DNA of 47,543 bases, taken from a virus (lineage: Duplodnaviria > Heunggongvirae > Uroviricota > Caudoviricetes). Position numbers and translations under genes: made by a program. The stretch lies in the IMG/VR virus record IMGVR_UViG_2721755644_000004; one strand, given 5' to 3'. Below are positions 1 to 39,088 of this stretch, in pieces. How positions within the stretch are numbered: the first letter of the stretch is position 1; each line of letters opens with the position of its first letter. The notes under the pieces were generated by a model. It worked only from the letters and a program-made list of their open reading frames with translations. It did no database searches and was not told the DNA's origin.

Positions 1-267
1 TTACTCTGCAGGTGAAGTCGGCCACTCAATATCAGGTGCAGTTGATGTATCAACACGATTCAACAATACCCGATATTTATTCCATGCCTCCAGCAACGAT
101 CTTTCTTCCGCCGTTGCGATTTCCAGATCTACAGCATCCTGCAGTGGCGCAATATACTCACTGAATTCCTGGATGTAGAACTGTGTGGTGACGGTCTTCC
201 AGCCATTCGGCTCCTGCTGTATCGAAGCATACCAGGCTATTTCAATATCGCTATGCTGCGGCAGCAT
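1..267 (-). CDS. Tail fibre assembly protein C-terminal fragment or paralog (Tfa-like); possibly a remnant
   Basis: 88-aa ORF whose sequence parallels the C-terminal half of the full Tfa at 1047-1631 (shared ...[43 protein letters not shown]...); first ~45 bp of window nearly identical to 1060-1106. Confidence 0.5.
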
Positions 268-323
268 TTAACCCCTTGTAATTCATCGCCATAATTGATT
301 TAATTCACAAATAAAACTATAAC

Positions 324-992
324 ATGGTGAAATCAATGAAAAAAAACACAGATGATGGGGCTAAAATTTACACACCACTTACCCTAAAGCTTTATGACTG
401 GTGGGTTTTGGGAGTATCAAATCGGCTTGCATGGGGATGTCCTACAAAGGAACACCTTCTTCCACACTTTCTGGAACATGTAGGTAACAACCATCTGGAT
501 ATTGGTGTTGGAACTGGGTTTTACCTTACTCACGTACCTGAGAGTAGTCTGATATCTTTAATGGATTTGAACGAAGCTAGCCTGAACGCGGCATCTACAA
601 GGGCTGGGGAATCAAAAATTAAACATAAAATTAGCCATGATGTTTTTGAACCTTATCCCGCGGCGTTACATGGTCAATTTGATTCCATTTCCATGTTTTA
701 CCTTCTTCACTGCCTGCCTGGAAATATATCTACAAAAAGCTGTGTAATACGCAATGCGGCGCAGGCCTTAACTGACGATGGAACTCTATACGGAGCCACA
801 ATTCTTGGCGATGGAGTTGTGCACAATAGCTTCGGTCAAAAACTGATGCGCATTTACAATCAGAAAGGCATCTTTTCAAACACAAAAGATTCCGAAGAAG
901 GCTTAACACATATACTCTCAGAGCATTTCGAGAATGTTAAAACCAAGGTTCAAGGTACTGTAGTAATGTTTTCCGCTTCAGGGAAAAAATAG
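324..992 (+). CDS. Class I SAM-dependent methyltransferase (Rossmann fold), AT-rich cargo gene; alternative start at 336 has the better SD
   Basis: Motif I hLDIGVGTGF, acidic residue after beta2 (LMDLNE), motif II-like FDSISMFYLLHCLP; low GC compared with flanking tail genes; sits between two tfa 3' segments. Confidence 0.75.
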   Translation: MVKSMKKNTDDGAKIYTPLTLKLYDWWVLGVSNRLAWGCPTKEHLLPHFLEHVGNNHLDIGVGTGFYLTHVPESSLISLMDLNEASLNAASTRAGESKIKHKISHDVFEPYPAALHGQFDSISMFYLLHCLPGNISTKSCVIRNAAQALTDDGTLYGATILGDGVVHNSFGQKLMRIYNQKGIFSNTKDSEEGLTHILSEHFENVKTKVQGTVVMFSASGKK

Positions 993-999
993 CATCCAA

Positions 1000-1032
1000 C
1001 CGCAGCACGTTCTTGCTTAAGACGTGCTGCGG
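1000..1032. terminator. 10-bp perfect inverted repeat hairpin (CCGCAGCACG-N13-CGTGCTGCGG) between methyltransferase and tfa; T-run on minus side
   Basis: Read directly from sequence; lies 3' of both convergent genes. Confidence 0.4.
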
Positions 1033-1046
1033 CATAATCCCAATGA

Positions 1047-1631
1047 TTACTCCCTGACAGGGTTCGTAGGCCACTCAATATCAGGTGCAGTTGATGTATC
1101 AACACGGTTCAGCAACACCCGATACTTCTTCCAGGCTTCCAGCAATGAGGTTTCTTCCTCCGTTGCAATTTCCAGATCTGCAGCATCCTGAAGCGGCGCA
1201 ATATGCTCACTGGCTACCTGCATCAGGTTGTTTTTTGTTTCTTCCGCCTCCCGGATCCGGAACAGTTTTTCTGCTTCCGTATCCTTCACCCAGGCTGTGC
1301 CGTTCCACTTCTGAAACTCCCCTTCCGGCGATAACCAGGTAACATTTTCCGGTAACGGACCGAGTTCAGAAATAAATAACGCGTCGCCGGAAGCCACGTC
1401 ATAAACCGTTTTACCCCGATGATCTTCAACGAGATGCCACGATGATTCATCACTGTTGAAAACAGCCACGAAGCCAGCCGGAATATCTGGCGGTGCAATA
1501 TCGGTACTGTTTGCTGGCAGACCTGTATGAGGCGGAATATATGCATCACCTTCACCAATAAATTCATTAGTTCCGGACAACAGATTATAAATTTTTATGG
1601 TCCGTGGTTGTTCACTCATTCTGAATGCCAT
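1047..1631 (-). CDS. tfa: Tail fibre assembly protein Tfa
   Basis: 194 aa, start overlaps stf stop (TAATG); matches lambda Tfa by eye and by position after stf. Confidence 0.9.
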
Positions 1632-4600
1632 TATGCAAGCCTCACAATATAGTTAAATGCGATGTTTTTGACGGTGTTTTCCGCGTTACCAGCAGCGTTA
1701 ACGGTGATGGTGTGTCCATGTGAACCAATCGCAACGGAGTGCGTATGAGCACCAATACCGACAGTATGTGCATGTGCACCAGCATTTGCTGCAGTACCAG
1801 ACAGCGAGTGGGTATGAGCACCTGCTGACTGTGTCTGAATACGTTGATAATACGATCTACTGGAAGAAGTCTCCGGGCTTACTTGATACTGTGAATCCTT
1901 GACATAAGTGAACCCACCGCCATCATAAAATGCTAACGCAGAACCGCCGCCTCCCGGCCAACGAATACCATTACCATGAGTATGAGCACCGGCAGACCCC
2001 GTAGAGCCACTCAGACTGTGCGTATGCGACCCGATGTTATTCGTGGATTTAGTGCCGTAATCAAACGACGATGTGGTTTTCGTCCCCAAATCCGTACTGG
2101 ATGCGCTGGCGCTGTGGGTGTGCGATTTTATGCCGTCCCGTTCCTGAGACAATACGGCCCGGCCACTGGCGGGTTTGCCCTTGATTGTCCAGCCGCGCAT
2201 ATCTGGAATAACACCTGAAGGATAGGCAATAGCCAGTTTCGGATATGCTGCCTTATCAAACGTCTGCCCCTGCATGATTGCATAACCTGCAGGTGGTGTA
2301 TCTGATGGCCACGGCAGCGGAACACCTGGCGGAAACGCTTCAATATTTGCCGAGCCGTCAAATTTTACGCCGTTAATTGTCCTTGCAGTTTGCAATTTGG
2401 TTGCTGTGCTTGCATTACCCGATAAAGATCCAGTGATACCACCACTCGCGTTTAATTTAGTTGCAATTGTAACATTGCCAGTATGGTTACTAATTATAAA
2501 CGGCCTTAAGCTATTGTGCGTACCAAGACTGTTACCCGAATCTGTCAACATAAAATATGTGTTTGATCCATCATTTCGGATAAAGAATCCATAGTTGCCA
2601 TAGGCAATACGCAGACCATTTGCTGACCTTGAAATAACCTCACCAGCAGCAGTTAAACCACCTGAAAGAGTCCCTCCAGTTAATGCCAATGCCCCAATAT
2701 TTGAAGGGGTCAATGTGATATTTGCACTACCATCAAATGACACACCGTTAATCGTTCTGGCTGCCTGAAGTTTCGTGGCGGTCGCAGCATTACCTGTAGT
2801 GTTTTGATTACCGGTAGCGTTGACTCCAGGCAAGTTGATATCTGCCGATCCATCAAATGCCACGCCCCCAATCTTACGTGCTGTCTTGATCTTGGTCGCA
2901 GTATCTGCGTTTCCGGTCAAATTACCAGTAACACTACCACCAACTTTTAGTCCATTACCGATGGACACCAACCCTGATCTTAAGTTTATAGAGAATGGTC
3001 TTAATGAACCGATGTCTCCATTTTCCCCCTCCCCTTCATTAGTCGGAATAAGATGAAGATAATCTTCGGAACGCCTAAAAATAAGGCCAAAGGCTTGGTT
3101 GAATATTCGAAGAGCATTTATCGTGCTGATTTTTAACTGCCCTCCCATTGTGTCGCCAGTTTTTTGAACTGAACTATCTTTAACAGTTTTAACTGCCTTT
3201 GGCGTTGCCGCCAGCTTTTCACTGGTGCTGTTTGTTGCACTGCTGAGCTGTACTATCCCCTTTTTCGTCGTGCTCGCATCCTCAAGCCCCACGGCGGATG
3301 CAATATCCTCTGCCCGTTTTGCCGCTGTTTCGGCACGCGTTGCCGCGGATTCAGCAGCAACTTTGCTCTGAGATGCCGCCGTCGCACTGCCTGCCGCCTC
3401 TGATGCTTTCGTTGTTGCTGTCGTGGCACTACCTTTCGCTGCTGACGCTTGTCTGGTCGCCTCATCTTTTGAAGCAGACGCAGATGATGCCGATGACGCC
3501 GCTGAACTGGCTGACGATGCGGCTGCCGCCTTAGAGGAAGCAGCATTGTCTGCTGAAGTCTTTGCATTTGTTTCAGAGGTTTTTGCTGCAGAAGCAGACC
3601 TCGCTGCTGCAGTGGCTTGCTCAGTGGCTTTGCCAGCCTTCGTTGTGGCTGTTGAAGCGGATGATGCGGCGCTTTCTGCCGATTTTCCGGCGGCGGTGGC
3701 ACTGGCTGAGGCCTGCCCGGCACTTGTTGACGCGGCACTGGCAGATAATGCAGCCGCTGTTTTTGAACCTGCCGCAGCTGAGGCGCTCTGTCCCGCTGCT
3801 GTTTCAGAAGACTTAGCGTTCGTCTCGGACGTTTTTGCCGCCTTCGCGGAATTTCCTGCCGCCGTTGCCGAGGAAGCTGCACTACTGGCACTTGATGATG
3901 CATTCGTTTCTGAAGATTTCGCTGCCTCTTTTGAGGCCGCCGCACCCCGTGCCGAGGTGGCAGCTTCTGACGCCTTCGTGGTCGCTGTGGATGCAGAAGT
4001 GGCTGCCGATTTTTGTGATGCTGCGGCATTCGTTTCTGACGTTTTCGCGGCACTGGCGCTGGTAGCTGCCGCGCTTTTTGATGACTCTGCAGCAGCAGCA
4101 CTTTTTGCTGCTTCACGGGCCTTTGTCGATGCCGTTCCTGCGCTGGAAGACGCTGACTGAGCCGACGACGCGGCCTGTCCGGCTGACGTGCTGGCGGCAC
4201 GTGCTGAGGCTGCAGCATCGGTTGCATGAGTTGCCGCCTCGCTGGCTGATGCACTGGCATCGCTGGCTGATTTTTTCGCGGCTGCCGTATTCTGTGCAAC
4301 CGCGGAGGCGTTACGTGACACCTCTTCCACCATCTGCTCAAAGCGGCGCAGTGCCTCCGGTCGGACATCATCCTCCGTCATGGCACCGAGAAAATCATTC
4401 AGCGTACCTGGTCTGGAACCTTCATAGACGGTAATGGTCCCGGCATGTGAAGGCGGAAAACCTTCAACCAGCAGGGTGACGCTGTACTGGCCATGCTCAA
4501 CATCCATGCTGTAACGTCCGGCTTCATCCGGATTTTCAGAGGCCACCGTGTTCACCACCACCGTGCTGCTGGTTCGTCTGGCCTTCAGCACAATGGTGCA

Positions 4601-4657
4601 GTTCTGTACTGGTTTTCCTGTGCCATCTTTAAGCACGCCAGAAATTTTTACTGTCAT
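1631..4657 (-). CDS. stf: Side tail fibre protein Stf (1008 aa) with long Ala/Ser/Thr-rich repeat region and His-rich C-terminal HTHS motifs
   Basis: N-terminus [28 protein letters not shown]... and C-terminus ...[31 protein letters not shown] match lambda Stf as I recall it. Confidence 0.92.
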
Positions 4658-4671
4658 ACTTTTCCACCAAT

Positions 4672-4704
4672 AAAAAAAGCCCGCAGCAGTGACGCCACGG
4701 GCTT
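4672..4704 (-). terminator. Intrinsic terminator-like hairpin plus T-tract downstream of lom (minus strand)
   Basis: Minus strand reads AAGCCCG-N15-CGGGCTTTTTTTATT. Confidence 0.5.
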
Positions 4705-4808
4705 CAGGACAGTGTAACTTTACGTTTCCTCAAACGCAGTTCACCCCATAAGGTGGATGAACCTGCGTATCATAACAATATTTACAGAAGATAAATCGGC
4801 GTCTGTTG

Positions 4809-5408
4809 TCAGAAACGGTATCCGATACCAACAATAAATGCATCCGTTCGCCAGTCGCCACTACCGGAACCTTCATAAGCAAGGTCAATGGTTACGGATT
4901 CGGTCGGGTTAAACTGCACGCCAGCCCCCCACGCCAGAGACGTGTTGCTGTGGCGACCGTCATCACTTCCGGTCAGCACATCGTGCGTTTTCCCCTTGTT
5001 GTCAGTTACGCGGAGATAATCCCCGGAGAAAGTCGACACACGGCTGTAAGCCACACCCACCATCGCATACGCGCTGAACCATTCATTCACGCGTACAGAC
5101 GGCCCCGCCATCACGCTGAACCAGCGGTTACGCACGGAATCTTCATGCCAGCGGGTATCGCTGTAGTGCGTTTTTTGCTCATCCTCAGCATTGGCATAAC
5201 TGAAGGACGTAATCAGCCCCAGCGCGTCCGTAAACTCATAACGGTATTTCACGTTAATCCCGTTCAGATTATCGCTGCCGGGAGCGTTCGTACGGGCATG
5301 AAGATACCCCGCGCTCAGTGTGGACTGATGTTCAGACGCCCATGCAGGCGCACCGGATACGGACAGACAGATGGCTGCGGACAAAATGGCTGCACAAACT
5401 TTACGCAT
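4809..5408 (-). CDS. lom: Lom outer-membrane protein (Ail/Lom family beta-barrel)
   Basis: 199 aa with signal peptide; MRK..AAILSAAICL.VSGAPAWASEHQSTLSAGYLHA..NAPGSDNLNGINVKYRYEF and C-terminal ..AYEGSGSGDWRTD.FIVG.GY.F as in lambda Lom. Confidence 0.92.
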   Translation of the reverse strand: MRKVCAAILSAAICLSVSGAPAWASEHQSTLSAGYLHARTNAPGSDNLNGINVKYRYEFTDALGLITSFSYANAEDEQKTHYSDTRWHEDSVRNRWFSVMAGPSVRVNEWFSAYAMVGVAYSRVSTFSGDYLRVTDNKGKTHDVLTGSDDGRHSNTSLAWGAGVQFNPTESVTIDLAYEGSGSGDWRTDAFIVGIGYRF

Positions 5409-5429
5409 AATTACCTCTCGCTTTTCTGC

Positions 5430-5458
5430 AATAAAAAAGGCGCCATTTCTGGCGCCCG
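5430..5458 (-). terminator. tJ-like intrinsic terminator after J
   Basis: Minus strand: GGCGCC-agaaat-GGCGCC followed by TTTTTTATT, immediately 3' of J stop. Confidence 0.55.
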
Positions 5459-5475
5459 TATTGGGGTTATAAAAT

Positions 5476-8400
5476 TCAGCTAATCGTGATGCCTGCAGTG
5501 GCTTTCTTCATCACAACAACCAGCAAATCGCTGATACTTGCTGTGGGATACCAGCCATTTACCCACCATGCTGATACAGAAAACTCCAGCGTCATGTGGC
5601 CGCGACCAGCAGGCATATCAATAACACCACTGTAAACCAGCGTATTATCCAGCGCGGTACGGTTATAAATTTCAGCACCGTTTTTCCGTACTATCAGGCG
5701 GCATGACGAATAAATATCGTTATTCTCCCGCTCATGTCTGGCACCGCTGAATGCCACCGCCGGAATAACAATTTGCCGGTCAAACGGCTGATCGTCATAA
5801 ACCCTGACGGTAATGGTCCCTGATGGCCACCTCTCCGGTGCACGGGAGTCACGGGGGAAAGCCTTACCCACTGTTTTAACGAGATCGCCTTCAATCTGGT
5901 TTGCAGACAGTTTCCCTCTGATGACACAGTTCTCGTTAATGGTGACATTATTGAGCGTGCCGGTATTCGCCGTGATGGCTCCACTGATATCCGCATTGCG
6001 GGCTGTCAGCCTGCCATCCGGCGTCAGGGAAAACGTAGGAGGATTGCCGGATGACGTGATGCTCACCGCAAACAGTCGCTTCAGGAACACGTCGTTCATG
6101 AACAGCTGATTCCCCTGCGCCACAAACAGCGGCGTGGTGTTGCCATTCTCCGGGGTAATCATCGCGATACGGTCCGCCTGCAGCAGAATACTGCTCAGCG
6201 TCTGACCATCAACATCCTCAATCCCCGCACCAATCCCGGCCACATAGGGAATACCGTTTTTTGTTTTCTGCACCTTCAGCATATACATGGCATTCAGCTC
6301 ATTGCGCGTGTCTGACTGAACCCGCTGGATTTGCTGTATGGTCACGGCCTGGTCACCCAGTTTTTTATCCGTGGTCGAGGTAATTTCACTCCCTTTTTTA
6401 TCCACGTACTGGCGGACCTGTGCTATCTGTCGGGCATTTTCTGACTGCCCCTGGCTGACAGTCTGTGAGATTTCACTGCTCACCCGGTCCACTTTCTGGC
6501 TCACCTGCGCGATGGCCAGTGTCTGGTCCTCATTCTTTTTCGCAACCAGCTGCGTGAGGCTGTTTTCCGCCTCCCCGATTTTCCGGGTCACTTCTGCGAT
6601 ATCCGTGTCCATCCGCTGACGGATGTCTTCTTCCAGTTGCGTGACCTCCGTACGCAGCGCTGAAGCATCAATGCGCTCTTTCAGTGCCTGGCCCAGAAGC
6701 GTCTCATCTATCAGCCCCCGGAAAATTTCCAGATACCCTTCACCATCATTGCTGGGCTGCCCGCTGGCTTCCACAAAAGCAGATTTTCCCACCAGGTTGA
6801 CGCTTCGCACGTAAAACCAGAAATCCGTCCCCGGCTTAATCCGGCTCCCCTGGACAGTCCACTGACTGCCGGTCCCCAGATAACGGGCAGATTTTTCCAC
6901 CTGTGCCGTGTTCGTGATGCGTTTTTCTGAGAACCAGAATTCAAACTGTACCGTCGGGTCATACACCGCAAGACGCGGGACCGCCGTTATCTGAAAATAC
7001 CCCGGCGTCAGCTCAATGGTGGCGGGTTTTGCAGGCGCGTTAATCCGGAAGGTGGTGGTCGCAGGTTCGCCCTGCTGGCCGTAGCTGTTAATGGCCCGCA
7101 CCGTCAGGGTGTATTCCCCCAGTGGCAGGCCGCTGAAACGGTGCTCCGTGTCTGCGGTGATGGCGGTGGTCACCAGTCTGGCATCCGTTCCCTTACCACT
7201 GGTCAGGCGCAGACTGAAGCGCACGCCCTTCACCACCCGCGGCGTGTCCCATTTCGCCTGCGCCAGATACTGTCCGTCAGCTGCGCTCACCTCCACCGTC
7301 AGGTGCTGCACTGCCGGTGGGATGACGCTGTTCAGGGAACCTGACTGCGGCTCAAAGCGGGCACCGTTATCCACGATGGCTTCTTTTTCCGGTACGTGCT
7401 GCACCGCCGTGATGGCAAAGGTGCCGTCCGTGTTTTCCCGGACGGAGACACAGCGGAACAGGCGACGGCGCAGTGACGGCAGGGAGAGTCCCCACACCCC
7501 GTATGTCTCCACACCATCAGGCAGGGTACTGACCTGTATCCGGTCAGGCGCGGGGTGTGCGGTGATGGCCACGCTCGCCGGCTTACCGCTGCCGTTAATC
7601 AGATTAACAGTGGCCGTGCCGGTCTCCGGCAGTGTCACCTCCCGGTCCAGCGTCAGGGTACGGCTGGCGGCATCGATGGACAGGACACGTCCGCCGGTCA
7701 TGGTCCCGGCATAGTCGTTATCACAGATTTCAATGATGTCACCGGGTGTGTGACGCAGCCCCTGTGACCCGAGCGTGAAATCCACCGTCTGCGTTTCCAG
7801 CAGTTCGGTCTTTATCACCCACAGCCCGGCACGGTGGGCCTGACCGCGGCTGGTACAGCCGAACGCGTCCATCTTCAGCAGGTTGCGTCCGTAGCGCAGT
7901 ATGGCTTCCGGGTCTTCCACCAGTTCCGTGGAGGTCTGCCAGCCGTTCTGCGGGTCGGTGTAATTCACCTCCACTGCCGTGTGCCGGTCCTTCAGGGCAC
8001 TGAAGCTGTAGCGGAAACCCACGCCGTTATCATCCACCACCACATCGCTGTTGGTGTACGGCCACACCACATCCGACGGGCGGTCCTGAACGAACGTCAG
8101 CGTCTGACCGTTCCATACCGGCATACAGCGCATCGCAGAGCAGAAATCACTGAGAACGTCCCACGCCTTACGCTGTTGTGCCAGGTACGCATTAAAGGTC
8201 ATCCGCGGCTCGGTCCCCCCGAAACCATCCGGGACCGTCTGGTCGCAGTACTGCCCGATGGCATACAGCGCCCACTTGTCCACATCCGCCGCCCCCAGAC
8301 GTTTTCCCATGCCGTAGCGCGGGTGAGTCAGCATGTCCCACAGGCACCAGGCCGGGTTGTTGCTGTATGCCGGTTTCAGACTGCCGTCCCAGATACCACT

Positions 8401-30247: not shown

Positions 30248-30694
30248 GGAGTTTACTCACATCTGACAAAATCAATATAAACAGCCCCTCCGGAGAGGGG
30301 CTGGAGAGTGGCGCTATGTGCCATTGCATGGTGCCGGGTGCCTCCCGGTGAATTCAGTACCAGCACCTGAATCCGCGATTATCCCATATACCTACTCGCT
30401 GATTGCCCCTCCGCACAGGGGGATTCACCATGCCAGTTTCTTTTAACAAACTCCCCGCAAACCAGACAACAGTCAACCGCCTGAATTGTGAAGTATTTAA
30501 AAATTTCTCCCGCTAACTGATACCCGGCTAACAGTCTGGCGTTTTCTTTTTCAGCAACGGGAAAGCAGCAACCACCACACCCGCCACCAGCACACCGTCA
30601 GCCAGCACTGACATTATCCGGCTGCTGCAATGCCATTCACAAAAACAGTAAGCAATCACTTTTTACCGTAACCGGTGATAATCCAGATATGTAT

Positions 30695-31051
30695 CTACCC
30701 CAGATGAGTAATCCGAAGTTCATCCATACCACAGGTCCTGGCTATTCTGTTGTACTCCTGAACAAGAGCAAATAATTCTGAATTAGCCACCATGAACTCA
30801 TCGCAAACCCTCTGTATAGCATCACTATTCAGAATAATAACGTCTCTTCCCGAAAGACGATCAGGAGTACAGAACAAAACTGTCAAACGGCTGAAGGCCT
30901 TTGCTCGTTCTGCATTGACTATATCAATACGCTGCCTAAGGATGAAACACCCCGACGCCTCATCAATATTCACTCTACCCACACCATATGAATGATAAAT
31001 ATTTAATGCTGAAAAAACCATTAGACCGTATAACAAACACTCAATCAACAC
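30695..31051 (-). CDS. Hypothetical protein (108-118 aa) in the stx-equivalent cargo slot
   Basis: ORF between tRNAs and AT-rich island, late-operon orientation; no recognisable domain. Confidence 0.4.
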   Translation of the reverse strand: MLIECLLYGLMVFSALNIYHSYGVGRVNIDEASGCFILRQRIDIVNAERAKAFSRLTVLFCTPDRLSGRDVIILNSDAIQRVCDEFMVANSELFALVQEYNRIARTCGMDELRITHLG

Positions 31052-31158
31052 TTAACAGAACTTTTATTTTTGACAAACATATAATATTTTCAACAATATC
31101 CTGAGCCAGGTATATTTCAGTATAAGGCTCTGCCGAAAGGAATCTGGAAGAATGAATA

Positions 31159-31234
31159 TGGCGCGCTGTACTGGATTCGAACCAGTGACCGATTGCTTAG
31201 AAGGCAATTGCTCTGTCCGGCTGAGCTAACAACG
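31159..31234 (-). tRNA. tRNA-Arg (anticodon UCU)
   Basis: Cloverleaf read by eye; anticodon loop cuUCUaa; GTTCGAATC T-loop; CCA end encoded; third of an Ile-Arg-Arg trio like the ileZ-argN-argO set of Stx-type phages. Confidence 0.8.
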
Positions 31235-31247
31235 CATGATGCAGATA

Positions 31248-31324
31248 ATGGACCGCCATCGGGGACTTGAACCCCGCGCAGCCAGCTTCGAAGGCTGGCG
31301 CTCTTTCCTGATGAGCTAATGGCG
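31248..31324 (-). tRNA. tRNA-Arg (anticodon UCG)
   Basis: Anticodon loop cuUCGaa; T-arm GGGGTTCAAGTCCCC; CCA encoded; ends uncertain by +/-2 nt. Confidence 0.75.
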
Positions 31325-31331
31325 GTATGTG

Positions 31332-31408
31332 ATGGTGGCCCTTGCTGGATTTGAACCAGCGACCTGGCGATTATGAGTCGCTCGCTCTCACCACTGAGCT
31401 AAAGGGCC
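31332..31408 (-). tRNA. tRNA with CAU anticodon (Ile2/lysidine-type or Met)
   Basis: 5' GGCCCTTTAGCTCAGTGG..., anticodon loop cuCAUaa, GGTTCAAATCC T-loop, CCA encoded. Confidence 0.8.
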
Positions 31409-31440
31409 GGGAGCAGAATAATAACGGTCCGTAATTAATT

Positions 31441-31471
31441 CCGCAATAAAAAACCCGCTCGGCGGCGGGTT
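31441..31471 (-). terminator. tR'-like intrinsic terminator downstream of PR'
   Basis: Minus strand AACCCGC-cgccga-GCGGGTT followed by TTTTTTATT. Confidence 0.7.
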
Positions 31472-31518
31472 GTAGAAACTCTTATAACGTCAGGCATAAA
31501 AAGCCCATTGTTATGACG

Positions 31519-31546
31519 AATTTACCACAGATTCCGGAAAAATCAA
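31519..31546 (-). promoter_or_regulatory. PR'-like late promoter (-35 TTGATT, 16-nt spacer, -10 TAAATT) just downstream of Q; qut expected here
   Basis: Hexamers read on minus strand; position matches the lambda PR'/qut/tR' arrangement. Confidence 0.6.
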
Positions 31547-31551
31547 CCTTG

Positions 31552-32373
31552 TTACCTAGTTACCTTTTTTAACTGCCGCTCAGCCCATGCTTCTTCAATA
31601 TCAAACCGGGTCACCAGCGCATCATAGAATTTCTTAACTGTTTTTTCCCATGACGCGCGTGTTATCTGGTTTGTCACCTCGCATATAGCATTAAATGCCT
31701 CCGTTGATGGTAGTCTTTCATAGCCACGACCACCACAACGCTGGCAGTCTCTGATAACAGGCATACCACGTTTTACCGACTCTTCACGATGAATGGCGAC
31801 ACCACGCCCACGGCAATCCTTACAGGCGGTGGAAACCTCACCCTTTCCGCCACACTCCGGACAGGCAACTTTTACCACCTCCCTGACTTTTTTCCATTCT
31901 TCCCAGTAAGACGAATACACACCTTTCGTACACTTTGCCCATACCGGCGGCTTACCATCCGGATACTGGACCTTGTTTGTAAAAACTACGCTTTCAATAA
32001 ATTTTTCCCCATAGCAACAAGGGCACTGCTTTTTACTCGCTGCGCTGCGGGCATAATCCTCAAAAGCGTACGAAGCCATAATGCGCATCACTACCGGTTT
32101 TATTTCTGCCGGAAGTTTTCTCAACGCCGCCACACGATCGCACCGACTGAGTGCATAATCTGCCAGTAATTCTGTTGCCCGCGCCCTGTCATTCATACTG
32201 ATGCCCATTTTCCCCAGGAACGCAGAAAAACCCATCTCAGCCCGATTCTGTGTCATGCCCTGCGCGGCCATCACATCAGTGATACTCAGCGCATCTTTTG
32301 ACGTTGAGGCCGATGCATCGGTCAGGCCAGGGGATTTTGGGGAGTAGTATTTCGGTAAATCTTCCAGTTTCAT
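31552..32373 (-). CDS. Late-gene antiterminator Q (long Q82/Qin QuuQ-like type with Cys-rich zinc-binding motifs)
   Basis: 273 aa immediately upstream of PR'/tR'; CPCCYG...CPECGGKGE...CKDCRGRG...CQRCGGRG motifs; call is largely positional. Confidence 0.6.
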   Translation of the reverse strand: MKLEDLPKYYSPKSPGLTDASASTSKDALSITDVMAAQGMTQNRAEMGFSAFLGKMGISMNDRARATELLADYALSRCDRVAALRKLPAEIKPVVMRIMASYAFEDYARSAASKKQCPCCYGEKFIESVVFTNKVQYPDGKPPVWAKCTKGVYSSYWEEWKKVREVVKVACPECGGKGEVSTACKDCRGRGVAIHREESVKRGMPVIRDCQRCGGRGYERLPSTEAFNAICEVTNQITRASWEKTVKKFYDALVTRFDIEEAWAERQLKKVTR

Positions 32374-32387
32374 TTTTTGACCTGCTC

Positions 32388-32750
32388 TTAATGCATTATG
32401 GGGTAAATCTTCACCCCCAGACGTCCACCAGATACTGGCTGACCACGAACGATATTGATTTCATCAAACTGCTCATCGTCCATTAACACTCCCGCATGCG
32501 TCAGCGCATCCAGCGGTGCTTTCAGGATATTGTCCAGGTCGCGACGACGCTTATCCGGTGGCTCTGCAATCACCTTTATCGCCAGCCTTCCGGACAGGTT
32601 TAATTTCAGCCGCTGCTGGCGAACAATTAGCGCCACATCACGGCGATAACGCTTTCCGGCCTCCGAGATGAAATACGTATTGCCATGACGTCGCCAGTAG
32701 GTATTCACCGTCGGCGGGTAAGGCAAAACAAATTCTATGCGTTCAGTCAT
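32388..32750 (-). CDS. rusA: Holliday junction resolvase RusA
   Basis: 120 aa; ..LPYPPTVNTYWR......ISEAGK.YR..VA.IV.....K.....L.I.V....PDKRRRDLDNILKA.LDALT.AGV..DD.Q.... RusA signature including DKRRRDLDN. Confidence 0.88.
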   Translation of the reverse strand: MTERIEFVLPYPPTVNTYWRRHGNTYFISEAGKRYRRDVALIVRQQRLKLNLSGRLAIKVIAEPPDKRRRDLDNILKAPLDALTHAGVLMDDEQFDEINIVRGQPVSGGRLGVKIYPIMH

Positions 32751-33809
32751 TCATGCTTTCCACTTCAGGACACCCGAATTTCTCGCGTGCATTAAAAAAC
32801 GAATCAGCAACAACAGCTGGCTGCCGTGTTTTTCTTCAAAATCTTTTACCCCGGCGTGCAGTTCGTTATGACATTTACGGCACAGCGGAATAACAAACAA
32901 ATCATCAGCCTTTGTTCCCATACCTCCCAGGCCATGACCAATGATGTGATGCGGATCATCTGCCTGATTACCGCACGTCATGCATTTCTGCGTTTTTACC
33001 CAGCGCGTGTATACAGGCATCTCTTCCCGTTGTGGTTTCTGGCGCTGGAGATACTGAGCCGGAGACTCCGGATCAACGGCGATGCTTACTAACGTCTTTT
33101 CCTGGAGTGGGGGCTGTTGCTGGTGGACGTGAAGTGGCAGCGCAATATTTTTTGTGCGCTGCTTCAGTATGCTGGTGGCAGTCTGTTCTCCCGGTACGAT
33201 GTCACTCTCACGGTATACGGAGCGGATTTTTTCCACCGGTAATCCCAGTGAACGACACAATACAGACTCCGGAAGCGCATCAGCCACCTGATTGCAGACC
33301 GCCCACCAGGATAATTCGGCCAGCGATAACTCCCTCTCCTGCGTACCGCTGATTGCGTGACGGATGACGTCAATCATCCATGCTGACAAGTTTTGGTGAG
33401 CAAGTTGCTCAAGTGATTCTGAGGTCTGGTCACACAACTGGTTGTCGCAGTGCCAGCACAACACCATTGCGCCGGTACCATAACGGTGAATGACGGTTTC
33501 ACTGTGGTGATAATCACCGTGTGGCCACTGGCAGGATTTAATATGGCGCAACAGCCAGTCAGACAGTGCACCAGCGCCGCCAGCAGCACGAATCACACGC
33601 TCATTGCTGAAAAATGGCAGTAATGATTTATCCTCCGCCAGCGGCTGGCGAACGGCAGGGACGACTCCGGATGGCAGGCCGCACATGCTTTTCGGTTCCG
33701 GCTCCACCAGCACTCGAGGATTATGAAATATCTGTATGGATTCACGGCCCGGCTTAAGGACCACCAGCCTAAGCTCAGGCACCAGAACAGGTCTAAGTAA
33801 TACCCGCAC
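32751..33809 (-). CDS. DUF968-like protein (Qin YdfU-like) with C-terminal Cys/His zinc-binding HNH-like motif
   Basis: 352 aa; C-terminus CMTCGNQADDPHHIIGHGLGGMGTKADDLFVIPLCRKCHNELHAG; position next to rusA/Q as in Qin; start may be internal. Confidence 0.6.
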   Translation of the reverse strand: MRVLLRPVLVPELRLVVLKPGRESIQIFHNPRVLVEPEPKSMCGLPSGVVPAVRQPLAEDKSLLPFFSNERVIRAAGGAGALSDWLLRHIKSCQWPHGDYHHSETVIHRYGTGAMVLCWHCDNQLCDQTSESLEQLAHQNLSAWMIDVIRHAISGTQERELSLAELSWWAVCNQVADALPESVLCRSLGLPVEKIRSVYRESDIVPGEQTATSILKQRTKNIALPLHVHQQQPPLQEKTLVSIAVDPESPAQYLQRQKPQREEMPVYTRWVKTQKCMTCGNQADDPHHIIGHGLGGMGTKADDLFVIPLCRKCHNELHAGVKDFEEKHGSQLLLLIRFLMHARNSGVLKWKA

Positions 33810-33810
33810 G

Positions 33811-34083
33811 TTACCTCCAGATCCGTTGCTGGAAAGTGCGGGACGGACGTGGTGGGCGTTCGGAATAAGGCAGCCTGACAGAGATTATCCAGTGCCGATA
33901 GTCGAGACTGAGAGCTTTCTTAACCTCGAACCCGCGCCTGCGGTAAGAATGAATCAGCCATTCGGCCTGTTCTTCAGTACATGGTGGGTGTTGGTACCAG
34001 TCGGTTTTAAATGCGTGTGAACGCCGCTCATGCCGGATGGCAAGGTCGGTATCAGAATTGTGAAATTTGGTTTTGTGCGCCAT
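33811..34083 (-). CDS. Hypothetical protein (90 aa), Rem-like by position
   Basis: ORF between hok and the DUF968 gene; no domain recognised. Confidence 0.4.
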   Translation of the reverse strand: MAHKTKFHNSDTDLAIRHERRSHAFKTDWYQHPPCTEEQAEWLIHSYRRRGFEVKKALSLDYRHWIISVRLPYSERPPRPSRTFQQRIWR

Positions 34084-34162
34084 CTGTTTTCTCTGCTGGC
34101 GCAGCAGGTGTCAGGTGTTCAGGCTGACGTGCGAATTGTAAACCAGAATGCCAGGAAAAAAC

Positions 34163-34183
34163 AAAACCCGCCGAAGCGGGTTA
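34163..34183 (-). terminator. Intrinsic terminator 3' of hok (AACCCGC-ttcg-GCGGGTT + T-tract on minus strand)
   Basis: Read from sequence. Confidence 0.6.
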
Positions 34184-34250
34184 AGTGCGGGTGCGTTGAG
34201 GATGCCTGACACATCAGAGGTGGCGAGGGATTTCTCCCCCGCCAGGTCTC

Positions 34251-34406
34251 TTACTCCTCAGGTTCGTAAGCTGTGAAGACAGCGACCTCCGTCTGGCCGG
34301 TTCGGATTCGTACCTCGCAGAGGTCTTTCCTCGTTACCAGTGCCGTCACTATGACGGTTAAACAGATGACGATCAGGGCGATTAACATCGCCTTTTGCTG
34401 CTTCAT
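34251..34406 (-). CDS. hokD: Hok/Gef-family type I toxin (51 aa, HokD/RelF-like)
   Basis: MKQQKAMLIALIVICLTVIVTALVTRKDLCEVRIRTGQTEVAVFTAYEPEE; single TM plus LCE(V/I)R motif typical of Hok; not in ORF track because under 60 aa. Confidence 0.85.
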   Translation of the reverse strand: MKQQKAMLIALIVICLTVIVTALVTRKDLCEVRIRTGQTEVAVFTAYEPEE

Positions 34407-34462
34407 AGCCTGCTTCTCCTTGACCTTTCGGTCCGTAAGAGGCTAATCTCTATGTGTCGCAT
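34403..34462 (-). CDS. mok-like upstream ORF (19 codons) overlapping hok start with ATGA
   Basis: Short ORF ending at the hok ATG; in Hok/Sok loci the Sok antisense RNA and fold-back elements lie in this leader (34407-34600), not mapped precisely. Confidence 0.4.
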   Translation of the reverse strand: MRHIEISLLRTERSRRSRL

Positions 34463-34664
34463 AGATATGGCCTCAGATTAATGTTAAGCGTCTTGCAGGA
34501 CGCGTAATGTTAACTGGGGCTTTTCTCTATCTGCCTTTTGGTGTTCATGCCTGAGACAGATAGCCTCAAGCACCCGCAGTCATTCTACTTAACTAAGATT
34601 TCCCCGCAAACCGTTTTTGTCCGGCACAGTAAATATCCAACTAAACCAATGGCGTTCGCTGTAT

Positions 34665-34883
34665 TTACCGCCAGTATTCAATGCACATGACCGCCATGAA
34701 CACCCCTAAAAAAAGGGCATTTATATGTCCAAACATTAATATCAAAACATCAACTTTTTCCATATACCTTGCTGTGAAGATGATGGGCATACATGATGCG
34801 AACAACCAGAACGCAACAAACAAAAACTGCAATGCGTTTTTCATTATTCCCCCTACAATCAATGTGCAATAACATTTAAACAC
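34665..34883 (-). CDS. AT-rich small hydrophobic ORF (two predicted TM segments); may be non-coding
   Basis: ORF in very AT-rich segment beside hok; both strands give ORFs of dubious composition. Confidence 0.2.
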   Translation of the reverse strand: MFKCYCTLIVGGIMKNALQFLFVAFWLFASCMPIIFTARYMEKVDVLILMFGHINALFLGVFMAVMCIEYWR

Positions 34884-35014
34884 ACCTCAATTTGGCCGGA
34901 CATATAAATATCTAAACCAGAAAAAATCACTTACATAGCGTTACAAACTCTTTAGTCTAAATATTCATCGCAAAATATTCCCCATACTTATCAGCCCGTT
35001 CTGCGCCAGGTAGC

Positions 35015-35329
35015 TCATTGCCTTATCTGGGAATCTGTAATCAGGTTTCCGGATGCTGGTGGATTTTCGCGTTTTAGTTGTTCATAAAAGTGCACAGCTT
35101 TAACCAGTTCTTCTGATGTCACCGGAACTGGCGGGGCAGCGAATAAGGCCTGAATTTCATAGTTCGGCCTGTCGTTGCAATCCTCTTTTGTCGGTACATA
35201 TTTCCAGTCACCAACCCACAGATTCTCCTGAAAGTCCGTAACGCCTTTTTTCACGTAGCGATATCGCCATGCAACTGGTTTTGCCTGCCCTGCCGTTTCA
35301 TGCCCTTCCTGATAATTAATCTCGCTCAT
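35015..35329 (-). CDS. Hypothetical nin-region protein (104 aa) starting MSEINYQ
   Basis: ORF with ATGA overlap to upstream gene; shares N-terminus and 5' DNA with the gene at 36105-36728. Confidence 0.55.
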   Translation of the reverse strand: MSEINYQEGHETAGQAKPVAWRYRYVKKGVTDFQENLWVGDWKYVPTKEDCNDRPNYEIQALFAAPPVPVTSEELVKAVHFYEQLKRENPPASGNLITDSQIRQ

Positions 35330-35502
35330 TCATCGCCCCACTCATCACAATATGCTTCGACCGGAGTTTTTCCTGCTTCATAATCATCACGCCATGCTTC
35401 AGCATCAGCAGCACTGCCACCACGTAACTCTGCATAGTCCATTAACAGTTCATGCCATGCTTCAAAACTGACGTTGTATTTAGTTGAACCAAAATCAGCC
35501 AT
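35326..35502 (-). CDS. Hypothetical small protein (58 aa)
   Basis: MADFGSTKYNVSFEAWHELLMDYAELRGGSAADAEAWRDDYEAGKTPVEAYCDEWGDE; translationally coupled at both ends. Confidence 0.45.
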   Translation of the reverse strand: MADFGSTKYNVSFEAWHELLMDYAELRGGSAADAEAWRDDYEAGKTPVEAYCDEWGDE

Positions 35503-35677
35503 TTTGCTCTTCCTCTTCGTCTTTTATTTCGTGATATGAGTAATTGCAGTAGTTAAAGAAAATATCTTTTGCTTCGTCATGTATTTCATCAGGCGTCGCA
35601 TCATCATCCACTTCGAATTCATCCTCGAAATCTCCACCGGCTATTCCCGTTTCAATAATTATTTTAAACTTTCGCAT
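35495..35677 (-). CDS. Hypothetical acidic protein (60 aa)
   Basis: ORF in operon context. Confidence 0.4.
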   Translation of the reverse strand: MRKFKIIIETGIAGGDFEDEFEVDDDATPDEIHDEAKDIFFNYCNYSYHEIKDEEEEQNG

Positions 35678-35770
35678 TTAACTACCGCCCTTTCGGGCGG
35701 CCTCCTGATGTTCTGAGGGTGCAGAAATCCCTCCGGTTAAGGATTAAATTTTTAACAGAGCTAAATTTAA

Positions 35771-36127
35771 TTATTCAGTTCTGGATTTTGTCGCCCTGCG
35801 TATCCGCGCTTTCGCGTTACGCTCAATCTGAATTAGCTTTTCTATATTTTTTCGCCTTTCCCGCTCCTCCTGACGCAAGAGCCTTACATCATCTGCCAGT
35901 CTGGTTTCTCTTTTCGCCACAGAGAGCATCCAGTCAAATGGTTCCACAACTGCACCGCAGATTTTACAGCGGACCTGACGCTCTTTTTCGTCAACCCGGA
36001 CAGAGGCGTGATGACAATATGGTCTTTCCGATGGCTCATAAAGAAAATTAACCTGATTACGAGGGTCATCCTCTTTTACCGGAAATAAAACGATATTGCT
36101 TAACTCATCCTCTGGTTTTATTTCCAT
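35771..36127 (-). CDS. Hypothetical protein with zinc-ribbon-like CHH...CKIC motif (118 aa)
   Basis: Internal start MEIKPEDEL chosen to avoid overlap with upstream gene. Confidence 0.45.
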   Translation of the reverse strand: MEIKPEDELSNIVLFPVKEDDPRNQVNFLYEPSERPYCHHASVRVDEKERQVRCKICGAVVEPFDWMLSVAKRETRLADDVRLLRQEERERRKNIEKLIQIERNAKARIRRATKSRTE

Positions 36128-36728
36128 GCTCCTCTCCTTTGATGCGAATGCCAGCGACGCGTAATGCGTGTTCCAGGTCAATCAGGTAAAGCCAACTGCC
36201 ATTTTCTTTAGGTATCATGACATGTCGCTCATCTGCATTTATCGGGTGTCCATATCGAAGGTCGTAGCGAGTCGGTAATTGAACTTCCCGCGCTTCCAGT
36301 TCAGCAATACGCTTGCACCCATCAGAGATAACTCCCTCGTAATACTCGCGCTGCTCGTTGAGTTTTGATTTTGCTGCTTCAAGCTCAACGAGCAGCTTCC
36401 CAACCGTAAGCGCAATATCCTCGTTCTCCTGGTCGCGGCGTTTGATGTATTGCTGGTTTCTTTCCTGTTCATCCAGCAGTGCCAGCACGGTAGCCGGGTT
36501 AGCCTCTGCTATGAACTCAGCGTTTGCATAAGCCTGAGCATCTGTTTCAATCAGGCAGTTAACATGACGTTCCGCAATCACGCCACCGGGTTCTCCTTTC
36601 CATTTTTGACAAACAAAAACTCCTGTTAAATTGCCGTGTTGGTTAACAGATGTATGCCCTACGATGTAGCTTCCTTTAGTTGCTTTCTCTGCCTTTTCAC
36701 GCAGTACCTGATAGTTAATCTCGCTCAT
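36105..36728 (-). CDS. Ead/Ea22-like coiled-coil protein (207 aa from MSEINYQ start)
   Basis: Typical early-region position; coiled-coil middle; family name from memory. Confidence 0.5.
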   Translation of the reverse strand: MSEINYQVLREKAEKATKGSYIVGHTSVNQHGNLTGVFVCQKWKGEPGGVIAERHVNCLIETDAQAYANAEFIAEANPATVLALLDEQERNQQYIKRRDQENEDIALTVGKLLVELEAAKSKLNEQREYYEGVISDGCKRIAELEAREVQLPTRYDLRYGHPINADERHVMIPKENGSWLYLIDLEHALRVAGIRIKGEEHGNKTRG

Positions 36729-36984
36729 TTTTCTCTTCATTCCGGTATACAAGAATTACAACGTCACCTCTGCTAATTACGCGAGCTGGATCCCCTGGTT
36801 CCATGCTGTCAATCCCGAAGGCTTCGAAAAATGCATCCATTGCCTTCTGGCGTTGCTCCTGCTTACGGCGTTTATTCCATTTTTGAACAACAGTGACAGC
36901 CATCGTCCGCTGCAGAACATGATGTAGAAATAACCAAGAAGTGCCAGGCCGGTGTTCAGGGCCATATCAATCGTTATCGCCGGG

Positions 36985-37287
36985 TCAATATTCACTGCCC
37001 ACCTCCTGAAAAATCACCGCATGGCCCAGTTTCTCCGCCAGTGCCAGCTCAGCCCTTGCACCTGCCGACTGCTGCCAGCCTTTCAGCATGTAAACCGCAT
37101 CCACGCAACGGAGCATTGCCATGCAAATATCCATGTAGTGTGGTTGAGTCAGCCCGTCCGGAAGTACTGCCGGGTTTAAAACGGTATGCCCTTCCCGTTT
37201 CAGCGCATCTTCCGCCCTGTGAAACGCCTCGCGGTTGAAATTTTCATATCCCGTCATCGGACCGGCGATATAAATCCTCACCCTCAC
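36985..37287 (-). CDS. DUF4406-like protein (nucleoside 2-deoxyribosyltransferase-like fold family)
   Basis: MRVRIYIAGPMTGYENFNREAFHRAEDALKREGHTVLNPA... pattern typical of DUF4406. Confidence 0.55.
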   Translation of the reverse strand: MRVRIYIAGPMTGYENFNREAFHRAEDALKREGHTVLNPAVLPDGLTQPHYMDICMAMLRCVDAVYMLKGWQQSAGARAELALAEKLGHAVIFQEVGSEY

Positions 37288-37538
37288 TCCTGAACCCTCC
37301 TGTCGAAATAAACGTAGTTATTCACTGCGCCCAACTTCATCCCAAACTTTTCGGCAATTTCCCGTCGGGGTACGCCACGCTGATGCAGTTGCCGCGCCAG
37401 CTCAATATCACGCTGTGAATATTTTGCCGACGGGTGAAAATCACCCCGTAAAATCATGCTGATACCCAGTTCCCGCGCTTTCGTCCTGACGGCTGACTCA
37501 CTACGACCAATCAGATAACCGATGCTTTCGACTCTCAT
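37284..37538 (-). CDS. Hypothetical HTH-like protein (84 aa from internal start MRVESIGY...)
   Basis: Track ORF overlaps upstream gene; trimmed to ATG at 37538. Confidence 0.4.
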   Translation of the reverse strand: MRVESIGYLIGRSESAVRTKARELGISMILRGDFHPSAKYSQRDIELARQLHQRGVPRREIAEKFGMKLGAVNNYVYFDRRVQE

Positions 37539-37597
37539 CGTTCCCGCACACTGCCGGAGTATCAGGATTTCAGCCCAGCGCCACTTCTTCCAGCCAC

Positions 37598-38314
37598 TCA
37601 CCGCTGCTGCTCTCTGGTGGCGGTAATATCCCGGAGAATATCCCTGTGTTTGTTCAGTTCCCGCAGCGCAGCACAGACTCGCTCCCACTTCTGGACATCA
37701 CTTTTCGCCCGGCGCAGCTCGCGGTTAGCCACATGCAGCGATGGTAGAATCAGGTCATCTGCTTTCATTTCGGTGATCGATGGCTGTAACCTCACAATGT
37801 CTTCCACGATTTCTGTTTTCATTTCTTCCTGTGCCATCATTTCCTGTACTGGTAACGCAACACCTGCTGGCTGAGGAAAGGCTTTACCATCGGTTTCCGC
37901 TACGGATGCAGCTTCCGGCTCTGCCGGTAAATCAGCGCCCGGTATGCAGTAACGAAATTTACCGCCCTGATTCACGCGAATCAGACGCCCTTTGCTGATT
38001 GCCATGGCCAGCGATGAATTCGCCCGGCGCGAGGTAATCCCGAACATCAGTGCCAGCTCATCCGCCGTTTGTGGGCCATGTTGTTCAATCGCCTCAGTCA
38101 GCATTTGCGCTGTCACTTTCGGTACCGGTGACACCGGTTCACTTTCACCAGCCTGAATCAGCCACCACATCGAACCCTTGTTATCCGCTTCACCGCGGCG
38201 CTTCAGTTTCCACAGTTCGTTGACCGCATCTTCACGGCTGATTCCAAGGCGGGCCGCCACTACCTGTGAAGAGGCTCTTTTCAGTGCTTTCAGTGCGTCA
38301 GATACGGTTTCCAT
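37598..38314 (-). CDS. Hypothetical early protein (238 aa; DUF1627-like)
   Basis: Position after DnaC-like gene; N-terminal HTH-like segment; family from memory. Confidence 0.5.
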
Positions 38315-38335
38315 TAATATTTCCTCCGGACAAAA

Positions 38336-39082: not shown

Positions 39083-39088
39083 GACACG

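Follow-up and report, generated by a model that had tools for sequence, protein, structure and literature searches.

Positions 1-1046 of a 47,543-nucleotide stretch of tailed-virus DNA (Duplodnaviria; Heunggongvirae; Uroviricota; Caudoviricetes; IMG/VR record IMGVR_UViG_2721755644_000004; the whole stretch is called the window) probably form an attachment-site (att)-proximal moron cassette of a lambda-like prophage, in which a gene for a small-molecule or lipid methyltransferase lies between tfa repeats that would act as recombination handles. The cassette is taken as window 1-1046, with the tfa and stf genes downstream of it as context. An earlier interpretation made from the letters alone (the sequence-only reading) had placed a methyltransferase gene, AT-rich relative to the tail genes, between the full tfa and a second tfa 3' segment; this arrangement is present, and the gene has a GC content of 0.41 against 0.51 for the whole window.

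Window positions 1-1700 are 100% identical to Escherichia coli Eco889, in which the window corresponds to exactly one lambdoid prophage between potB and potC. The prophage extends from the stop codon of a tfa remnant (window position 1) to the integrase (window end), and left of it lies a 231-bp flank followed by potB. The Eco889 context shows no invertase and no further tail-fibre genes left of the window. This border with the potB flank places window 1-1046 at the att-proximal prophage end, downstream of J-lom-stf-tfa; the methyltransferase gene is transcribed convergently to this late tail operon. The prophage looks complete and lambda-like at its potB/potC site.

The moron concept is reportedly that of Hendrix and colleagues, with lom and bor of lambda and the morons of HK97 as examples. 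The cassette shares with lambdoid morons an extra gene that is independently promoted (here putatively), compositionally distinct (GC 0.41 vs 0.51), set against the late operon and followed by a 3' hairpin. It also shares with them the cargo region between tail fibre and att, and presence or absence among similar phages (an empty allele occurs in 47 genomes). The cassette differs from these morons in being flanked by direct repeats of the tfa 3' end, which give it a homologous-recombination route, and in encoding an enzyme, not a surface protein.

Distribution of the cassette

Prevalence was determined in 5,426 complete E. coli genomes. Of these, 3,838 (~70%) contain a 779-nt methyltransferase segment, at 4,947 places and with at most 4 per genome, all at an identity of at least 95%; across 11 full-length copies compared, the methyltransferase DNA is at least 99% identical. 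The segment 1-335, which joins remnant, junction and promoter, is found in 3,435 genomes, and the whole 1-1700 arrangement in 1,499 complete genomes (both at a coverage of at least 80%). The full-length gene also occurs in 14 phage records, including ev243, 2G7b and PhiR phages. Other prophage sites carry the cassette as well: ompW (UTI89 and WP2-S18-ESBL-08) and the ybcH-envY-ompT side of the DLP12 site.

The corresponding locus of the K-12 prophage DLP12 is named tfaD-ybcY-tfaX in the literature (PMC3946193). In K-12 (b0561-b0563, by appY-ompT) the order is nohD, terminase fragment, tfa fragment, frameshifted methyltransferase, tfa fragment, appY and ompT. Order and orientation are shared with the window: tfa 3' part, hairpin, convergent methyltransferase, divergent promoter and tfa remnant. 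At the DNA level the two loci are 96.8% identical over window 21-1485 and 98.8% over the methyltransferase segment, and the promoter hexamers (TTGATT, 17 nt, TATAAC) are identical. In K-12, however, the methyltransferase gene carries a frameshift or a start mutation, both copies of tfa are fragmentary and the prophage is defective, whereas in the window the methyltransferase is intact, tfa is full-length and the prophage, at the potB/potC site, looks complete.

The cassette is a textbook-like cargo slot of a prophage, ordinary and already annotated; its genes are named in K-12, and nothing is conceptually changed by it. A one-off capture, as implied by the sequence-only reading, is contradicted by the match to tfaD-ybcY-tfaX and by the 3,838 genomes with the gene and the 3,435 with the remnant-promoter junction. 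The same reading had named a conserved component of the tail-fibre module as the alternative, and the methyltransferase is indeed a conserved and very common companion of the tail-fibre end. Table 1 collects the features of the locus.

Table 1. Features of the cassette and of the adjoining tail-fibre genes, in window coordinates.
Feature	Position	Strand	Remarks
88-amino-acid open reading frame	1-267	-	3' 174 nt form a decayed tfa remnant, counterpart of K-12 tfaX
Direct-repeat copy A (tfa 3' segment inside remnant)	17-174		87% identity to 1066-1223
Methyltransferase promoter region (putative)	268-335	+	-35 TTGATT at 295-300, 17-nt spacer, -10 TATAAC at 318-323
YbcY-family class I SAM-dependent methyltransferase, 218 amino acids	336-992	+	Annotated as 324-992, 222 amino acids
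Perfect hairpin, 11-bp arms	1000-1032		Between convergent methyltransferase and tfa
Full tfa, 194 amino acids	1047-1631	-	Pfam Caudo_TAP, E = 2e-44; RefSeq annotation; 3' end 1066-1223 is repeat copy B
stf side tail fibre gene, 1008 amino acids	1631-4657	-	Penultimate gene of late operon J-lom-stf-tfa; RefSeq 'prophage tail fiber N-terminal domain-containing protein'

Direct repeats and the tfa remnant

The near-identity of the left edge of the window to the 3' end of tfa, described earlier as ~45 bp followed by ~150 bp of similarity, stands, with corrected limits. It is a 158-nt direct repeat (137/158 positions, 87% identical) with a longest exact run of 38 nt (20-57 = 1069-1106), and the similarity stops at ~174/1223. 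The left copy lies in the 88-residue open reading frame (ORF), whose stop codon occupies window positions 1-3, base 1 being the last base of the stop. The Caudo_TAP match of this ORF is limited to residues 31-87 (profile positions 75-131 of 131) and does not extend over the whole profile. In an alignment with two full Tfa proteins, the adjacent one and another, similarity is limited to the C-terminal ~58 residues, and the part encoded by the first ~30 codons is like neither of them. The partial-profile match and the unrelated N-terminus together argue that the ORF is a decaying C-terminal remnant of tfa. RefSeq labels 1-174 as a pseudogene ('tail fiber assembly protein, incomplete, missing N-terminus'). 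Across 15 copies the remnant ORF is 61, 66, 82, 88, 89 or 101 residues long, and several copies lack the conserved APDIEWP end or carry frameshifts or stops.

The ORF might instead encode a functional short tail-fibre chaperone, since it is open in the window, is matched over its full length by a PHROG of its own (phrog_2341, 88 residues, function unannotated) and is kept beside the methyltransferase in 3,435 genomes; moreover, a divergent promoter for K-12 tfaX is listed by genomic SELEX (systematic evolution of ligands by exponential enrichment). Such a role is improbable, however, because the likeness to Tfa is confined to the C-terminal ~58 residues, the C-termini vary or are broken between copies, RefSeq calls a pseudogene, and the conservation of the ORF is explained by its linkage to a nearly identical cassette. 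A tblastn match of residues 9-86 to phage RE2010 had prompted the idea that the remnant is a relic of a P2/Fels-2-type Tfa. This idea was dropped, as the Tfa of RE2010 aligns with full lambda-type Tfa and not with the N-terminus of the remnant.

Exchange at the tfa ends

Homology between prophage cassettes breaks off on the left (att) side at window position 1, 20 or 43. On the right side it ends at 1032-1038, just past the hairpin, or at 1167, within the tfa 3' end (phage ev243), and otherwise continues into tfa-stf. Between copies, the methyltransferase gene differs at only 1-4 of 654 nt, against 3-4% for the flanking tfa.

An empty allele was sought with a chimeric query made of the potB-side flank, the repeat and the unique part of full tfa. 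It is matched uninterrupted in 47 genomes, in which a single tfa abuts the same potB flank. In E2348/69, J-lom-stf-tfa lies against the potB flank without the methyltransferase. The last ~57 nt of its tfa correspond to the remnant and the rest mostly to full tfa, with few remnant-like mosaic positions, and the switch in this hybrid gene falls at the 38-nt identical run. The empty-allele tfa fits the product expected of recombination between the direct repeats, or equally a recipient that would have taken up the cassette.

Different cargo is found between the hairpin and the full tfa in other prophages: a Pin-like recombinase gene, ydfK (cold shock) and a ynaM/ynfT gene in RM10466 (locus L013, 5766-7524), and manganese catalase with yciE/yciF/yciG-like stress genes in 7386Nal (locus L015, 5772-8574). 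The hairpin-tfa junction is therefore a hot spot of cargo insertion.

The sequence-only reading had attributed the capture of the gene to recombination between tfa paralogs. For spread and loss this proposal is supported by the breakpoints in the repeats and by the 47 empty alleles. It does not account for the original capture: taking up a chromosomal gene for the first time needs a separate, illegitimate event, which tfa recombination does not explain.

Duplications of tfa occur in the invertible segments of Mu, P1, P7 and e14, so the duplicated ends might belong to an invertible tail-fibre segment (a host-range switch of the Pin/Gin/Cin kind) with the methyltransferase as passenger. The cassette shares with the G segment of Mu, the C segments of P1 and P7 and the P segment of e14 (with Gin, Cin and Pin) the duplicated tfa ends near the end of a tail-fibre operon; a pin-like gene sits in the same cargo slot of some cassette relatives, such as RM10466, and U' of P7 and U of Mu are distant matches of the remnant. 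In contrast to those segments, the tfa repeats of the cassette are direct, not inverted, and a second stf 3' end is absent. No recombinase lies in or beside the region: left of the window, where a check for an invertase had been advised, potB is found, and the integrase stands alone at the far end of the prophage. The remnant, moreover, lacks the N-terminal two-thirds of Tfa, and its C-termini are variable and often broken. An inversion system is thus highly improbable. That the repeat is an assembly or collapse artefact, an alternative suggested by its contact with the window edge and raised earlier as an assembly duplication, can be dismissed with near certainty, as 1,499 complete genomes, each finished independently, and genomes of isolated phages have the same arrangement, and the two repeat copies differ at 21/158 positions.

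Enzyme class and substrate type

The gene product is a stand-alone class I (Rossmann-fold) S-adenosylmethionine (SAM)-dependent methyltransferase. Pfam Methyltransf_12 matches with 37.5 bits (cut-off 30), and Methyltransf_23, _25 and _11 are also above cut-off. NCBIfam gives sub-threshold matches only, to CpaM, RquA and PmtA; the classification by hidden Markov models that had been called for thus places the enzyme in generic class I families, with specific families below threshold. SAM-binding motif I is present (LDIGVGTG, residues 58-65), and the acidic residue that ends strand beta-2 (D81 in LMDLN) is invariant in 26 homologues. The protein has the seven-stranded beta-sheet of the alpha/beta fold. 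An AlphaFold (AF2) model from 26 homologues has a predicted local distance difference test (pLDDT) value of 90 and consists of a single Rossmann-type domain with an N-terminal helical lid.

Membership of the YbcY family (phrog_2132, function unannotated) is indicated by a match of E = 4.2e-157, in which residues 5-222 cover profile positions 1-218 of 218, and by the K-12 copy, with 98.8% DNA identity and the same gene order. Invariant motifs of the family are YDWWVL..N..AW.C, H.D.G.GTG, HD, DS.S..YL.HCL.G, GATI.G and YN.KGIF.N.

Fold and motifs point, with moderate confidence, to an enzyme of the cytoplasm that methylates a small molecule or lipid (O-, N-, S- or C-methylation). In fold it resembles methyltransferases of small molecules and lipids. 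The closest sequence relatives in the PDB, by profile search, are JHAMT, UbiG and 8rdl, a chain deposited as ToxA protein, which is the xenorhabdin methyltransferase XrdM; a search of the viral BFVD structures returned generic methyltransferases only. With small-molecule class I enzymes (JHAMT, UbiG/Coq5, phosphoethanolamine and phosphatidylethanolamine (PE) N-methyltransferases, DhpI, BelI/CysG) the enzyme shares the seven-stranded Rossmann-like fold, the N-terminal helical lid, the GxGxG motif and a similar size. It differs from them in an identity of only 11-21%, with no family-specific model at cut-off, in the family's own invariant motifs (YDWWVL-x3-N-x2-AW-x-C, LLHCLPG, GATILG and YNxKGIFxN) and in the absence of pathway partners.

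Methylation of a macromolecule other than DNA, for example a tRNA or rRNA base or a protein, is unlikely. Enzymes of this kind are among the matches, yet they rank under many small-molecule enzymes, and the top sequence relatives (JHAMT, UbiG and XrdM in 8rdl) are small-molecule methyltransferases. The model shows no RNA-binding extension, and the His/Cys-rich pocket motifs YDWWVL...N..AW.C and LLHCLPG are invariant; to our knowledge, these are not the motifs of known RNA methyltransferase families.

A PmtA-like phospholipid N-methyltransferase that alters the membrane of the lysogen is less probable still. It is suggested by Foldseek, which places PmtA of R. thermophilum, a protein of similar length, at ranks 2 and 5 with a template modelling (TM) score of ~0.65, by a weak NCBIfam match to the Legionella-type PmtA and by a Trp-rich N-terminal helix that could be amphipathic. 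The resemblance is in fold only, however: the family model NF045882 scores 15.7 bits against a cut-off of 390, and sequence identity is 16-18%. We know of no report of methylated PE or phosphatidylcholine in E. coli strains with an intact gene. A small-molecule enzyme is better supported than either the macromolecule or the PmtA-like alternative.

Orphan DNA methyltransferases are frequent in prophages, and the Rossmann SAM-binding fold would suit an enzyme that shields phage DNA from restriction or reprogrammes the lysogen epigenetically. This is very unlikely, however, since a catalytic motif of the DPPY/NPPY type is absent (a regular-expression search of the protein for [DNS]PP[YFW] found none) and a single domain of 218 residues leaves no space for a target-recognition domain; neither such a domain nor structural similarity to DNA methyltransferases was found. 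Pfam and NCBIfam assign no DNA-methyltransferase family, and the homologues are stand-alone chromosomal genes without restriction partners. No restriction partner lies near the prophage gene, and the PADLOC defence models give nothing significant, the sole match being mad2 (E = 0.009, 12.9 bits). Most likely, then, DNA is not methylated by the enzyme. The sequence-only reading is supported in taking the gene for prophage cargo that encodes a class I SAM-dependent methyltransferase and has no restriction partner close by; of the DNA, RNA and small-molecule modifiers that it left side by side, fold and motifs favour the small-molecule modifier over the other two.

Gene start, promoter and hairpin

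The methyltransferase ORF as annotated (324-992, + strand, 669 nt) agrees with the 222 residues given before, while the conserved start shortens the product. This is most likely a protein of 218 residues that begins at ATG 336, because Met5 of the annotated protein is invariant in 26 homologues and begins all 25 aligned ones, ATG 336 is invariant in other genera whereas ATG 324 is not conserved there, and the profile phrog_2132 is 218 residues long.

The putative promoter hexamers can be read directly in the sequence. Genomic SELEX assigned the same hexamers to a constitutive RpoD promoter of K-12 ybcY, and the divergent ybcY/tfaX spacer of K-12 is bound by H-NS (PMC3946193). Upstream of the chromosomal homologues, the -35 block TTGATTTAATT is conserved in Enterobacter, Citrobacter and Klebsiella, and its Salmonella counterpart reads TTGTTTTAATT. 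DNA homology to the Enterobacter chromosomal gene runs from window 274 to 963 and so spans the promoter, which argues that the gene entered phages together with its native promoter. A generic promoter and terminator scan gave nothing above chance expectation, and the promoter pair is absent from its list.

The hairpin past the gene is perfect, as described before, with arms of 11 nt (1000-1010 and 1022-1032, 100% complementary) and not of 10 bp. It folds with -23.9 kcal/mol on the + strand (z = -5.6) and -30.8 kcal/mol on the - strand (z = -4.5), and no shuffled sequence folds equally well. It lies 8 nt past the methyltransferase stop and 15 nt past the tfa stop, and probably either terminates transcription from both sides or stabilises 3' ends. 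In the UTI89 and WP2-S18-ESBL-08 prophages, hairpin and tfa 3' end are duplicated as a block (998-1223, 88% identity) beside the remnant. Since they are duplicated together, the hairpin belongs to the tfa 3' flank, travels with the tfa 3' end and is not part of the captured chromosomal piece.

An ORF of 45 residues (937-1074, - strand) spans the hairpin and overlaps the 3' ends of both the methyltransferase gene and tfa. It is a 'hypothetical protein' in RefSeq (WP_001309429.1) and a 'nucleocapsid protein' in K-12 relatives, is matched by no PHROG and seems to be spurious.

Chromosomal homologues and their neighbours

At E <= 0.001 the methyltransferase matches 2,296 database clusters. Homologues with 50-68% identity are single chromosomal genes in Salmonella, Enterobacter, Klebsiella, Yersinia, Erwinia, Pantoea and Proteus, and further in Pasteurellaceae, the Pseudomonas syringae group, Xanthomonadales and Oxalobacteraceae. 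The chromosomal family is widespread in Gammaproteobacteria and some Betaproteobacteria.

Neighbours, surveyed at 73 non-E. coli loci from GTDB species representatives, are genus-specific: Pseudomonas has DUF6388 and enoyl-CoA hydratase, Proteus has PAPS-reductase-like and ParB_N-like genes, and Salmonella has PMT_2. Across genera, recurrence is limited to the promiscuous short-chain dehydrogenase/reductase (SDR) and LysR families.

In Salmonella enterica (locus L002, 5987-8663) the chromosomal homologue (56% identity) directly follows a 516-residue membrane glycosyltransferase of the PMT_2 family, in an AT-rich region that also holds a 408-residue gene with Sif and Lipase_GDSL domains, which we take to be sseJ. 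In the Pseudomonas syringae group (loci L059-L094, ~4600-6470) a DUF6388 gene lies 6-9 nt upstream of the homologue, and a gene of the enoyl-CoA hydratase/isomerase family follows ~115-270 nt past its end on the same strand; a DUF6388-homologue-hydratase operon, seen in that genus only, is possible. Pairing of the methyltransferase with an esterase was also considered, given an alpha/beta hydrolase beyond the remnant in DLP12-site prophages and ev243 and a carboxylesterase beside the Erwinia homologue, and was dropped because the two hydrolases are unrelated (BLASTP E = 0.87). Two Firmicutes metagenome-assembled genomes, labelled Bacillus sp. (L019) and Planococcaceae (L027), include short contigs with the E. 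coli prophage methyltransferase at 99% identity, almost certainly through binning contamination.

Other features of the prophage

Within stf (window 3200-4400, - strand) an Ala/Ser/Thr-rich low-complexity stretch (~residues 100-480, GC up to 0.62) produces long spurious ORFs in other frames (372 and 245 residues); Tandem Repeats Finder reported no regular repeat in it.

A tRNA cluster (31159-31408, - strand) just downstream of the antiterminator gene comprises Arg-UCU, Arg-UCG and a CAU-anticodon tRNA, which is Met according to ARAGORN and Ile according to RefSeq. Islands of rare-codon tRNA genes downstream of the antiterminator are usual in lambdoid and Stx-type phages.

Among the accessory genes of window ~29000-43000, the RefSeq annotation of the same DNA lists hokD, dicB-ydfABC, iraM and a YdaT-family toxin gene, and a small TonB-family gene lies near the lysis cassette. 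The accessory genes of this part are familiar from K-12 cryptic prophages. Several gene fragments in it suggest that the prophage is partly decayed.

Proposed role and significance

The methyltransferase, with its native promoter, would have been taken from the stand-alone chromosomal family into a phage. From its own sigma-70-type promoter we infer expression from the resting prophage, independent of late transcription and probably damped by H-NS. The enzyme most likely methylates a small molecule or lipid in the cytoplasm of the lysogen. The tfa 3' direct repeats would provide the homology handles by which homologous recombination moves the cassette, together with adjoining cargo, into lambdoid prophages or removes it from them.

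Several points weigh against this picture of the cassette. No experiment or paper in the literature searched assigns a substrate; publications on ybcY/tfaX contain mentions of the locus, the SELEX promoter and a note of a knockout without phenotype, and no function. The neighbour survey found no conserved cross-genus neighbour that could serve as a pathway clue. The promoter is putative, based on SELEX and hexamer matching, and leaves a leader of only ~5-7 nt. The hairpin has no canonical adjacent U-run, and a simple terminator scan did not call it because the minus-strand U-run begins ~10 nt past the stem. The ratio of nonsynonymous to synonymous substitution rates (dN/dS) among prophage copies, which differ by 1-4 nt only, is uninformative, and the gene has been allowed to decay in the K-12 lineage. 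The empty allele could be ancestral and not a deletion product.

A more far-reaching and tentative proposal is that the YbcY-family enzyme is a lysogenic-conversion factor, which would modify one particular small molecule, be it a toxic metabolite, an antibiotic made by a competitor, a lipid of the membrane or a signalling compound, with a fitness benefit for the lysogen. If true, this benefit would explain why a near-invariant copy, shuttled via the tfa repeats, is present in ~70% of E. coli genomes.

The methyltransferase gene is among the most prevalent cargo genes of E. coli prophages (3,838/5,426 genomes) and belongs to a well-conserved proteobacterial enzyme family. The locus is a clear natural case of a cargo cassette with conserved tfa 3' sequence at its limits, in occupied, empty and multiply loaded alleles, and it could serve to measure how morons move between lambdoid phages by homologous recombination.

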